Translations under genes and position numbers: made by a program
In this document: one piece after another, positions 18,969 to 21,803 of the stretch
Position numbering within the stretch: the stretch's first letter is position 1
Layout of the letters: the number at the start of each line of letters is the position of its first letter
Assembly (NCBI RefSeq): GCF_003334305.1
Contig: NZ_QOWS01000007.1
Strand: one strand, 5' to 3'
DNA: 64,000 nt
DNA from: Escherichia coli
GTDB lineage: Bacteria > Pseudomonadota > Gammaproteobacteria > Enterobacterales > Enterobacteriaceae
Notes under the pieces: generated by a model
What the model saw: the letters and a program-made list of their open reading frames with translations, nothing else
Database searches by the model: none
Told to the model about the DNA's origin: nothing

Positions 18969-19031
18969 TGGCGCGATAACGTAGAAAGGCTTCCCGAAGG
19001 AAGCCTTTTTTCAACAGATTAACCGTTTCGC

Positions 19032-20285
19032 TTATGCGTAAACCGGGTAACGTGCGCAGATGTCGAGAACTTTACCTTTGATGCGCTCGATAACGGCTTC
19101 ATCATTGATGCTGTCCAGCACGTCACACATCCAGCCAGCCAGTTCTTTCGCTTCTGCTTCTTTGAAGCCGCGACGCGTAATTGCCGGAGTACCCACGCGA
19201 ATACCGGAGGTCACAAACGGGCTCTTCGGATCGTTCGGTACGCTGTTTTTGTTGACGGTGATGTTAGCACGGCCCAGAGCGGCGTCTGCTTCTTTACCGG
19301 TCAGGTTTTTATCGACCAGATCAACCAGGAACAGATGGTTATCAGTACCGCCGGAAACCACTTTGTAGCCGCGTTCCAGGAACACTTCTACCATCGCTTT
19401 AGCGTTTTTAGCGACCTGCTGCTGGTAAGTTTTGAACTCAGGCTCCATCGCTTCTTTCAGAGCAACCGCTTTACCGGCGATTACGTGCATCAACGGACCG
19501 CCCTGACCACCAGGGAAAACGGCAGAGTTCAGTTTTTTGTACAGCTCTTCGCTACCACCTTTCGCCAGGATCAGGCCGCCGCGCGGACCCGCCAGGGTTT
19601 TGTGAGTGGTGGTAGTAACAACGTGAGCATGAGGAACCGGGTTCGGGTAGACGCCAGCAGCAACCAGGCCCGCAACGTGCGCCATATCAACGAACAGGTA
19701 AGCACCGATGCTGTCAGCGATTTCACGCATTTTCGCCCAGTCCACCACGCCGGAATATGCAGAGAAACCACCGATAATCATTTTCGGCTTGTGTTCTTTG
19801 GCTTGTTTTTCCAGATCGGCGTAGTCGATATGACCGGTAGCATCGATACCGTAAGGAACGATGTTGTACAGTTTACCGGAGAAGTTAACCGGAGAACCGT
19901 GAGTCAGGTGACCGCCATGCGCCAGGTTCATACCCAGAACGGTATCACCTGGTTCCAGCAGCGCGGTGTAGACCGCAAAGTTAGCCTGGGAGCCGGAGTG
20001 CGGCTGGACGTTAGCGTAGTCAGCGCCGAACAGTTCTTTCGCACGATCGATCGCCAGTTGTTCAACGATATCAACATACTCGCAACCGCCGTAGTAGCGT
20101 TTGCCCGGATAACCTTCAGCATATTTGTTGGTCAGCTGAGAACCCTGCGCCTGCATTACGCGCGGGCTGGTGTAGTTTTCGGAGGCGATCAGTTCGATGT
20201 GCTCTTCCTGACGTACTTTTTCCTGCTCCATAGCCTGCCACAGTTCGGCATCATAATCGGCAATGTTCATTTCACGCTTTAACAT
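19032..20285 (-). CDS. glyA: Serine hydroxymethyltransferase
   Basis: PLP-lysine signature [16 protein letters not shown]; 417 aa from [12 protein letters not shown]. Confidence 0.95.
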
Positions 20286-20403
20286 CCGCATCTCCTGACT
20301 CAGCTAACAATAAAATTTTTGGCCTTTATAGGCGGTCCTGTTGGACAACGGCGAACAGTATAACCGAATCATTGTGCGATAACAGGTCTTGACAAAGGAA
20401 TTT

Positions 20404-20419
20404 ACGCAAACGATTACCT
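20404..20419. promoter_or_regulatory. Candidate PurR box in the glyA-hmp divergent control region
   Basis: acgcaaacgattacct resembles the pur operator consensus ACGCAAACGTTTGCGT (left half perfect). Confidence 0.35.
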
Positions 20420-20563
20420 TCAGGCTACGCAAGGCTTTGGAGAATAAAGAGCTTGCAACCGGAAACGGATTTCTTTTCAGGTTTGTGATGCAAATTTTTC
20501 ACTTCATCACATTCTTTCTGAAAAACACCAAAGAACCATTTACATTGCAGGGCTATTTTTTAT

Positions 20564-20586
20564 AAGATGCATTTGAGATACATCAA
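20564..20586 (+). promoter_or_regulatory. NsrR-type operator overlapping the hmp promoter
   Basis: aagatgcatttgagatacatcaa, an imperfect inverted repeat of ATGCAT/ATACAT half-sites ~30 bp upstream of the hmp start. Confidence 0.55.
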
Positions 20587-20612
20587 TTAAGATGCAAAAA
20601 AAGGAAGACCAT

Positions 20613-21803
20613 ATGCTTGACGCTCAAACCATCGCTACAGTAAAAGCCACCATCCCTTTACTGGTGGAAACGGGGCCAAAGTTAACCGCCCATTTCTACG
20701 ACCGTATGTTTACTCATAACCCAGAACTCAAAGAAATTTTTAACATGAGTAACCAGCGTAATGGCGATCAACGTGAAGCCCTGTTTAACGCTATTGCCGC
20801 CTACGCCAGTAATATTGAAAACCTGCCTGCGCTGCTGCCAGCGGTAGAAAAAATCGCGCAGAAGCACACCAGCTTCCAGATCAAACCGGAACAGTACAAC
20901 ATCGTCGGTGAACACCTGTTGGCAACGCTGGACGAAATGTTCAGCCCGGGGCAGGAAGTGCTGGACGCGTGGGGTAAAGCCTATGGTGTACTGGCTAATG
21001 TATTTATCAATCGCGAGGCGGAAATCTATAACGAAAACGCCAGCAAAGCCGGTGGTTGGGAAGGTACTCGCGATTTCCGCATTGTGGCTAAAACACCGCG
21101 CAGCGCGCTTATCACCAGCTTCGAACTGGAGCCGGTCGACGGTGGCGCAGTGGCAGAATACCGTCCGGGGCAATATCTCGGCGTCTGGCTGAAGCCGGAA
21201 GGTTTCCCGCATCAGGAAATTCGTCAGTACTCTTTGACTCGCAAACCGGATGGCAAAGGCTATCGTATTGCGGTGAAACGCGAAGAGGGTGGGCAGGTAT
21301 CCAACTGGTTGCACAATCACGCCAATGTTGGCGATGTCGTGAAACTGGTTGCTCCGGCAGGTGATTTCTTTATGGCTGTCGCAGATGACACACCAGTGAC
21401 GTTAATCTCTGCCGGTGTTGGTCAAACGCCAATGCTGGCAATGCTCGACACGCTGGCAAAAGCAGGCCACACAGCACAAGTGAACTGGTTCCATGCGGCA
21501 GAAAATGGCGATGTTCACGCCTTTGCCGATGAAGTTAAGGAACTGGGGCAGTCACTGCCGCGCTTTACCGCGCACACCTGGTATCGTCAGCCGAGCGAAG
21601 CCGATCGCGCTAAAGGTCAGTTTGATAGCGAAGGTCTGATGGATTTGAGCAAACTGGAAGGTGCGTTCAGCGATCCGACAATGCAGTTCTATCTCTGCGG
21701 CCCGGTTGGCTTCATGCAGTTTACCGCGAAACAGTTAGTGGATCTGGGCGTGAAGCAGGAAAACATTCATTACGAATGCTTTGGCCCGCATAAGGTGCTG
21801 TAA
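20613..21803 (+). CDS. hmp: Flavohemoglobin (nitric oxide dioxygenase)
   Basis: 396 aa from [12 protein letters not shown]; globin N-terminus and FAD motif RQYS; aaggaag ribosome-binding site. Confidence 0.95.

Follow-up and report, generated by a model that had tools for sequence, protein, structure and literature searches.

Operators of the NsrR regulon, such as those of ytfE, hcp, ygbA and hmp, share an 11-1-11 inverted-repeat architecture, the 23-bp pattern AAGATGyATTT-N-AAATrCATCTT and the half-site AAGATGCATTT, and overlap the core promoters of genes that belong to the NO-stress response. Operators of the pur regulon, for example that of purL, are imperfect palindromes of 16 bp built on a GCAAAC/GTTTGC core, with CG at the centre; glyA is a listed member, at which PurR repression is reported to be about two-fold. 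MetR, a LysR-type regulator, has tandem sites in the divergent spacer between metE and metR, and a class of FNR repression sites overlaps the transcription start. NsrR repression of hmp is described in the literature, and repression of hmp by FNR, relieved by NO, has been reported as well (among other sources in PMC1274295). MetR activates glyA with homocysteine and affects hmp, and two tandem MetR sites are placed in the hmp-glyA spacer (PMC5002191). The Hmp protein is the main aerobic NO-detoxifying enzyme, and its uncontrolled expression is harmful, superoxide being made when NO is absent.

Here we describe the spacer between glyA and hmp within a 64-kb stretch of Escherichia coli DNA, the whole of which is called the window. 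The spacer is almost certainly the canonical E. coli glyA/hmp divergent control region, with two sigma-70 promoters that each have a repressor operator of their own, and with a central MetR region common to both. It is thus an already known regulatory region in which the known operators yield no new biology, and it serves as a positive control with the sites located to the base. Several signals meet in this short stretch between divergent genes, with NsrR and FNR responding to NO, FNR to oxygen, PurR to purines and MetR to homocysteine. The comparative data presented below modestly sharpen the picture by separating ancestral NsrR and PurR sites from two recent additions, an FNR overlay and a second NsrR half-site.

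The glyA-hmp spacer

The first-pass annotation placed a 327-bp spacer between the divergent genes glyA and hmp. Its coordinates and sequences hold, and the gene limits agree with the list of open reading frames and with the annotation of E. coli K-12 MG1655 mapped onto the window (Table 1). The spacer has 100% identity to that of MG1655 and is present as a single copy in each of the 5426 complete E. coli genomes, with at least 99% identity in 5385 of them. It is AT-rich, with a G+C content of 0.39 against 0.52 for the window. The window is not itself MG1655 DNA, as the 4.3-kb alignment in which the spacer lies has 45 mismatches (~1.1%); about 3.5 mismatches would be expected within the spacer and none are seen, which mildly suggests constraint. 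An AGGA/GGAG motif ahead of the hmp ATG is conserved in the spacer alignment, and the glyA ATG at 20285 lies 6 nt past an AGGAG ribosome-binding sequence.

Scanning positions 20000-20900 against Rfam gave no known RNA family (a match to mir-67 is meaningless, with E = 0.65 and a score of 17 bits against a 53-bit threshold), a terminator search within the spacer found none, and a repeat search of the spacer with a seed of 6 returned no direct or inverted repeats. Two short open reading frames are present, one of 58 aa at 20389-20565 on the plus strand and one of 42 aa at 20304-20432 on the minus strand, and both cross operator sites and variable parts of the alignment. The variable segment 20503-20529 has a conservation of 0.28.

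Table 1. Coordinates of the glyA-hmp spacer, its flanking genes and the sites within it; positions are those of the window.
Feature	Position	Strand	Details
glyA (serine hydroxymethyltransferase) coding sequence	19032-20285	-	Open reading frame list and mapped MG1655 annotation
glyA-hmp divergent spacer	20286-20612		327 bp; NC_000913.3 2685508-2685834; open reading frame list and mapped MG1655 annotation
23 nt before the glyA ATG	20286-20308	-	GTTAGCTGAGTCAGGAGATGCGG; ribosome-binding sequence and conserved upstream segment
Small GC hairpin in the glyA leader, predicted	20335-20346	-	GUCC-AACA-GGAC
glyA core promoter region, predicted	20357-20395	-	TTGTCA 20395-20390; AATGAT 20373-20368; TATACT 20362-20357
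PurR operator (pur box)	20404-20419	-	AGGTAATCGTTTGCGT; centre 126 nt from the glyA ATG
Conserved block CAAGGCTTTG	20430-20439		Conservation 0.80; flanked by the pur box and the MetR-like boxes
MetR-like box	20466-20480		cGGAT-TTCTT-TTCAg; 6/10 against ATGAA-N5-TTCAT
MetR-like box	20488-20502		ATGCA-AATTT-TTCAC; 8/10 against ATGAA-N5-TTCAT
Third MetR-like box, candidate	20531-20545		AAGAA-CCATT-TACAT; 8/10; overlaps the hmp -35
hmp sigma-70 promoter, predicted	20539-20568	+	-35 TTTACA 20539-20544
NarL/NarP-type heptamer, candidate	20549-20555	-	Inside the hmp promoter spacer; read from the alignment
hmp -10 option TATAAG	20561-20566	+	16-nt spacer
hmp -10 option TAAGAT	20563-20568	+	18-nt spacer; promoter scan
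NsrR operator	20564-20586		11-1-11 inverted repeat AAGATGCATTT-G-AGATACATCAA; centre 20575; overlaps the hmp -10 and the inferred transcription start
FNR box	20573-20586		TTGAG-ATAC-ATCAA; nested in the NsrR right arm
Second, weak NsrR half-site	20589-20599	+	AAGATGCAAAA
hmp ribosome-binding sequence	20601-20607	+	AAGGAAG; read from the sequence
hmp (flavohaemoglobin, NO dioxygenase) coding sequence	20613-21803	+	Open reading frame list and mapped MG1655 annotation

The NsrR operator of hmp

On the hmp side of the spacer the operator reads AAGATGCATTTGAGATACATCAA. Sequence comparison shows it to be identical to the published hmp site: its reverse complement is TTGATGTATCTCAAATGCATCTT, the 11-1-11 site of hmp in the glyA<>hmp peak of NsrR ChIP-seq in strain CFT073 (PMC5320621). 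The half-site at window positions 20564-20574 is listed in the same study, 44 nt before hmp (PMC5320621). The ATGCAT/ATACAT inverted repeat, flagged in the first-pass annotation as of the kind that NsrR binds, is thus the published NsrR operator of hmp with the same letters as the CFT073 site.

The operator fits the original comparative-genomics consensus for NsrR, gATGyAT-N5-ATrCATc (PMC1274295), perfectly at all 14 specified positions, and with at most one mismatch this consensus has a single match in the 64 kb against 0.05 expected. Motif scans had been proposed as a check on the annotation, and with a leave-one-out matrix trained on the remaining 25 distinct sites in the published table (training scores 12.1-32.3) the operator has the top score in the window, 17.0, which is within the training range. 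This score is reached by 10 of 100 random 64-kb windows and by 0.5% of spacer-sized, composition-matched shuffles. The centre of the operator is 38 nt before the hmp ATG. Read by eye, its 11-nt arms are complementary at only 7 of 11 positions and it is imperfect as a bare inverted repeat; the repeat search was blind to it because the dyad is too imperfect. What makes it significant is its match to the motif and its conservation, not dyad symmetry.

Like the other operators of the regulon, the hmp site overlaps the core promoter of its gene. It differs from that of ytfE (AAGATGCATTTAAAATGCATCTT) in its degenerate right arm, and from the other members in that it doubles as an FNR box and is followed by an extra, Escherichia-specific half-site. 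This second half-site is listed as 'hmp (19)', with a score of 5.0, 19 nt before hmp (PMC5320621). Together with positions 20563-20571 it makes up a direct repeat of 9 nt, TAAGATGCA, at a 25-bp spacing. Within the alignment the half-site is restricted to E. coli and E. albertii, and its mean conservation is 0.41.

The predicted hmp promoter has a -35 hexamer with a conservation of 0.96, TTTACA being kept in most of the displayed spacers, and two options for the -10. One comes from a promoter scan; the other corresponds to TTTACA-16-TATAAG, the hmp promoter proposed by Shimada (2014), in which glyA<>hmp has an RpoD-holoenzyme SELEX entry. The left arm of the NsrR operator covers the predicted -10 hexamer (TAAGAT/TATAAG). 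The FNR site of hmp is said to be centred at +5.5, a position reportedly given by Cruz-Ramos and colleagues in 2002, and from this together with the geometry of the promoter we infer that hmp transcription starts near 20575. An operator that lies on the -10 hexamer, with its centre at about the start point, would fit repression by occlusion.

The PurR operator of glyA

The box on the glyA side, positions 20404-20419, is ACGCAAACGATTACCT on the plus strand. Read on the glyA strand it is identical to AGGTAATCGTTTGCGT, the glyA motif in the PurR ChIP-chip analysis of Cho et al. 2011, where enrichment at glyA was 2.08 with adenine and 1.13 without it (PMC3159470). RegulonDB classes the glyA PurR site as 'confirmed' through independent cross-validation by footprinting, site mutation and ChIP-chip (PMC3548332). 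What had been annotated as a pur-box-like sequence is accordingly the published PurR site, letter for letter, and identity of sequence makes both flagged motifs published operators rather than mere lookalikes.

The box fits the 16-bp palindrome-like ACGCAAACGTTTGCGT with its central CG, and differs from ACGNAAACGTTTGCNT at two positions; when two mismatches are allowed, only this box and the purL operator are found in the window. The PurR matrix scan gave a leave-one-out score of 22.0 (training median 20.6), second in the window only to the purL operator at 30416-30431, which scored 23.2 and acts as a positive control. A score of 22.0 is reached by 2 of 100 random 64-kb windows and by no shuffled spacer. 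Compared with other boxes of the pur regulon, this one has a degenerate promoter-distal half (AGGTAATC). A gap of 8 nt separates it from a conserved TTGTCA hexamer on its downstream side, and its centre would be at about -50 or about -62, depending on the true glyA -10; the box is placed upstream of the -35 and not between -35 and -10, as in 44% of the promoters under PurR control (PMC3159470).

Conservation of the operators across Enterobacterales

One genome per species was scanned with a degenerate pattern in hmp codons 21-30, and this yielded 120 loci. As the anchor lies within hmp, the retrieval is unbiased by the spacer itself, and the hmp ATG was at the position predicted from the anchor in 118 of the 118 loci that were not cut by the locus end. 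A divergent glyA within 1.5 kb is present in 96 loci, all from Enterobacterales, and was not seen within that distance in the retrieved Vibrionaceae loci and a few others. Site counts refer to the 94 complete glyA-hmp spacers, which are 272-723 bp long.

All 94 spacers contain an NsrR site (scores 17.0-32.5, median 28.4; 99th percentile of shuffled spacers 16.0), mostly 27-55 nt before the hmp ATG, and all 94 contain a pur box (scores 14.7-25.9; shuffled 99th percentile 11.7), mostly 112-144 nt from the glyA ATG; a PurR score of 14.7 is reached by 0.3% of shuffled spacers. Conservation is 0.89 for the pur box, 0.93 for the left NsrR arm and 0.68 for the right arm, and the left arm together with the -10, ATAAGATGCATTT, is nearly invariant in the alignment. 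The pur box and the left arm are two of six blocks that stand out on the conservation profile, the others being the hmp -35, the 23 nt before the glyA ATG, the TATACT box and the TTGTCA block. Judged from these alignments, the NsrR and PurR operators are ancestral to the Enterobacterales glyA-hmp divergon, and the FNR box is recent, as is the second NsrR half-site.

An FNR box within the right NsrR arm

The FNR box TTGAGATACATCAA matches TTGAT-N4-ATCAA at 9 of 10 positions. With at most one mismatch this motif has 7 matches in the window against 2.4 expected, so that the match is weak evidence by itself. Among the spacers sampled, those of Escherichia and some Citrobacter are the only ones with a 9/10 box here, to which can be added the published Salmonella hmp site, TTTGATATACATCAT, also a 9/10 match; Rodionov et al. 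agree on this restricted distribution (PMC1274295). Such a pattern points to a lineage-specific site and not to a lack of function. Like other FNR repression sites that overlap a transcription start, the hmp box lies just downstream of the inferred start, but it differs from the usual ones in being nested in the operator of another repressor, phylogenetically young, and absent from most Enterobacterales. Several Xenorhabdus species have instead a perfect FNR box, TTGATTTAAATCAA, ~60 bp upstream of the NsrR centre.

In the alignment the right arm is TTTGAGATACATCAA in Escherichia and TTTAAAATACA in most genera, with endings in TTTAAAATACAACTT or ATCAT, and the common version of the operator is AAGATGCATTTAAAATACAACTT. 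The FNR overlay in this arm would thus account for the NsrR scores of E. coli and E. albertii, which are the lowest of the 94 (17.0 against the median of 28.4); on that ranking the Escherichia operator is a comparatively weak one, as far as matrix scores predict. The lineage-specific substitutions in the right arm look like a trade-off, in which they make the FNR box and leave an NsrR match weaker than in any other of the 94 spacers.

Candidate MetR sites in the centre of the spacer

Two MetR-like boxes, set 22 bp from one another, occupy the centre of the spacer, and both contain a perfect TTCA half-site (MetR motif taken from PMC4239095). MetR dyads, ATGAA-N5-TTCAT or TGAA-N5-TTCA, usually occur in tandem. 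The motif has 32 matches in the window against 30 expected, which is chance level, and assignment to MetR by motif alone was dropped. Conservation of the two blocks is 0.73 and 0.75, and they are near invariant in Enterobacteriaceae. We infer from position and conservation that these blocks are the best candidates for the two reported MetR sites. As at metE-metR, the boxes lie side by side between divergent genes, separated by about two helical turns, and both have a good TTCA half-site, but the matches are weak, and the boxes, at ~110-145 bp from the glyA start and ~80-102 bp from the hmp start, are farther upstream than the usual LysR-type positions (-65 and -35).

Alternative explanations

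Could both operators be chance matches in an AT-rich spacer, with no regulatory function? The NsrR matrix is AT-rich and degenerate, its score at hmp is matched in one out of ten random windows, and the seed-6 repeat search recovered no inverted repeat, all of which would be expected of a fortuitous match. However, published ChIP peaks cover sites with exactly these two sequences, both sites recur at corresponding positions in all 94 spacers, and shuffles seldom reach even the lowest scores seen among those spacers (0.5% for NsrR, 0.3% for PurR). For NsrR and PurR alike there is identity with a published bound site, statistical distinctness, and conservation at a fixed position across Enterobacterales; given this conservation and the published occupancy, we regard chance as effectively refuted. 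A more specific possibility is that positions 20564-20586 are kept mainly for the hmp -10 hexamer, or in E. coli for the FNR site, with NsrR binding secondary. The coincidence of the near-invariant left arm with the -10 hexamer, the much lower conservation of the right arm and the 9/10 FNR box that it contains in E. coli would all fit, yet the right arms of other genera vary while staying within the NsrR pattern ATrCAnnTT, with scores of 20-32, and this is more than a -10 hexamer alone would yield. The FNR-like box, moreover, is limited to Escherichia, Citrobacter and Salmonella, while an NsrR site is present throughout, and an NsrR ChIP-seq peak lies at the site (PMC5320621), so that we think this possibility very improbable.

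It is also conceivable that the pur box serves both promoters and that PurR modulates hmp besides glyA, as the box is within the common 327-bp spacer, ~164 bp upstream of the inferred hmp start, and the ChIP-chip binding region covers the whole spacer (PMC3159470). Cho et al. nevertheless assign the site to glyA only (PMC3159470), a literature search gave no report of PurR control of hmp, and the distance from box to glyA is roughly constant even though spacer lengths vary from 272 to 723 nt. A role for PurR at hmp therefore seems to us slightly less probable still.

A model for control of the two promoters

The canonical arrangement, with one repressor operator for each promoter and MetR between them, suggests how the region would work, with occupancy and effector responses drawn from the literature and the steric component from the arrangement of the sites. 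A dimer of NsrR, an Rrf2-family [Fe-S] protein, would occupy the 23-bp operator and, by covering the -10 hexamer and the start region, block RNA polymerase; damage to the [Fe-S] cluster by NO would take NsrR off the DNA and derepress hmp. FNR at the right-arm box would add anaerobic repression that is also relieved by NO, and because their sites overlap NsrR and FNR are probably never on the DNA together. PurR with hypoxanthine or guanine, bound to the pur box just upstream of the -35 region, would cause a modest drop in glyA transcription and in this way tie one-carbon supply to purine sufficiency. MetR on the central boxes (~20466-20502) would activate glyA in the presence of homocysteine, and depletion of homocysteine, for example by nitrosation, would lead MetR to favour hmp.

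The first-pass annotation had taken the regulation of this spacer to be known nitrosative-stress and purine control, and the published ChIP-seq and ChIP-chip sites support that description. Its NsrR and PurR sites stand, but it had passed over the FNR box, the second NsrR half-site and the MetR-like boxes.

Conserved elements on the glyA side

It had also been concluded that nothing in the spacer is unexplained. This is true of the NsrR and PurR sites, which are known, but is slightly too strong for the spacer as a whole: a literature search gave no assigned factor for the conserved TTGTCAAGACCT block, the TAYACTGT box, CAAGGCTTTG, the 23-nt segment before glyA or the leader hairpin. In the predicted glyA core promoter, the promoter scan pairs TTGTCA-16-AATGAT, of which AATGAT is not conserved; conservation is 0.93 for the TATACT box and 0.82 for the TTGTCA block. 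The distance from the conserved TTGTCAAGACCT block to the conserved TAYACTGT box is 27-29 nt, too far for the two to form a single -35/-10 pair, and on sequence grounds the true glyA -10 is ambiguous between AATGAT and TATACT.

Of 80 unique leaders, 66 have a hairpin comparable to the one predicted here (18.8 +/- 3.3 in shuffled leaders), most often 16 nt past the start of TAYACT. Its stems vary with compensation (GTCC/GGAC, GCCC/GGGC, ACCC/GGGT). The strand preference is weak (66 against 58), and RNAalifold on an ungapped leader alignment gave only 3 pairs. The glyA leader as a whole was ruled out as a stable structure (z = +0.66), the signal being confined to the small local hairpin. The 23 nt before the glyA ATG have a conservation of 0.92, which ranks first among the 305 windows of that length in the spacer, and contain the palindrome CTGA-G-TCAG (CTGAGTCAG). 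A literature search for sRNA control of the E. coli glyA leader returned only Neisseria, Vibrio and other organisms.

We put forward, as a tentative and rather doubtful proposal, that the glyA half contains an uncharacterised control module that is conserved throughout Enterobacterales and, separately, that the Escherichia NsrR operator embodies an NsrR/FNR trade-off. Putative parts of the glyA module may be the TTGTCAAGACCT block at its fixed distance from TAYACTGT, the hairpin at its fixed offset, and the segment directly before the glyA ATG. If the proposal is true, the module could represent an additional transcription factor, control of the start site, or an element that acts on translation or mRNA stability.

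Further candidate sites near the hmp promoter

The block AAAGAACCA (20530-20538) is conserved in Enterobacteriaceae and is part of the third MetR-like box; a literature search on the block and on this box found no assigned factor and no binding data. The NarL/NarP heptamer consensus is TACYYMT, and the candidate heptamer in the hmp promoter spacer is AGGGCTA on the plus strand (TAGCCCT on the minus strand) in E. coli and TACCCCT in Citrobacter, Enterobacter, Kluyvera and most Enterobacteriaceae. NarP control of hmp in enterobacteria was predicted by Rodionov et al. (PMC1274295).

Sequences flanking glyA

The 23 nt that precede the glyA ATG on the - strand (20286-20308) are near-invariant from Escherichia through Photorhabdus and Xenorhabdus. 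They include a palindrome, CTGA-G-TCAG, that adjoins the glyA ribosome-binding sequence, and the degree of conservation across this short segment exceeds what a ribosome-binding site alone would need.

On the other side of glyA, the yphH-glyA gap (19008-19021) lacks approximately 148 bp that are present in MG1655 (2597-2744 of its locus, L001). The missing MG1655 segment is 87.6% identical to 49067-49195 in the srmB-yfiE gap of this strain, a stretch that resembles REP/BIME palindromic units (GCCTGATGCGCTACGCTTATCAGGCCTAC...GCCGGATAAGGCGT...). Judged from this sequence comparison, the length difference looks like a presence/absence polymorphism of a REP element downstream of glyA.

Variation of the hmp promoter and glyA leader among genera

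Five loci of the comparative sample, from Xenorhabdus and a related MAG (L048, L064, L090, L098 and L120), carry a perfect FNR box, either TTGATTTAAATCAA or TTGATTTATATCAA, located 111-120 nt before the hmp ATG and about 60 bp upstream of the centre of the NsrR operator. This placement suggests that FNR activates hmp in the Xenorhabdus lineage rather than repressing it.

Enlarged glyA-hmp spacers of 420-723 bp are found in Serratia, Shimwellia and Yersinia (L020, L037, L075, L104, L110 and L116). In four of these six loci (L020, L037, L075 and L110) the glyA leader is itself expanded, to about 182-191 nt, and contains long palindromic stretches, which look like inserted repeat elements. We note that at one locus, L037 (Shimwellia pseudoproteus), codon 5 of hmp is an in-frame stop (MLDP*TIATVK...), possibly marking a pseudogene or else a sequencing error.

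Other matches to regulator sites in the window

The purL box, which has the highest PurR matrix score in the window and is the same as the purL motif of Cho et al. 2011 (PMC3159470), served as the positive control for the PurR matrix scan. A weak PurR-like box lies upstream of glnB, which was reported as a PurR target by He et al. 1993, as cited in PMC3548332 and PMC3159470; glnB was not detected by the PurR ChIP-chip of Cho et al. (PMC3159470).

Matches to PurR, NsrR and FNR sites outside the glyA-hmp spacer.
Coordinates	Feature	Sequence	Location	Matrix score
22254-22269	Weak PurR-like box	TTGAAATCGTTTGCAT	Upstream of glnB, within glrR 3' end	11.5
30416-30431	PurR box	ACGAAACCGTTTGCGT	purL	23.2
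30603-30625	NsrR matrix match		mltF 5' end	12.6
35272-35294	NsrR matrix match		Between shoB and ohsC sRNA gene, immediately upstream of ohsC	14.4
51353-51366	Perfect FNR box	TTGATTTAAATCAA	grcA-ung gap, upstream of grcA (yfiD)	
51406-51419	9/10 FNR box	TTGTTTTACATCAA	grcA-ung gap, upstream of grcA (yfiD)	

The matches adjacent to ohsC and at the mltF 5' end are the runners-up in the NsrR matrix scan of the window, and both score above the weakest training site (12.1); scores of this size are common by chance. The two FNR boxes in the grcA-ung gap are spaced 53 bp apart and fit the pair already known from the yfiD promoter, where FNR sites lie at -40.5 and -93.5.
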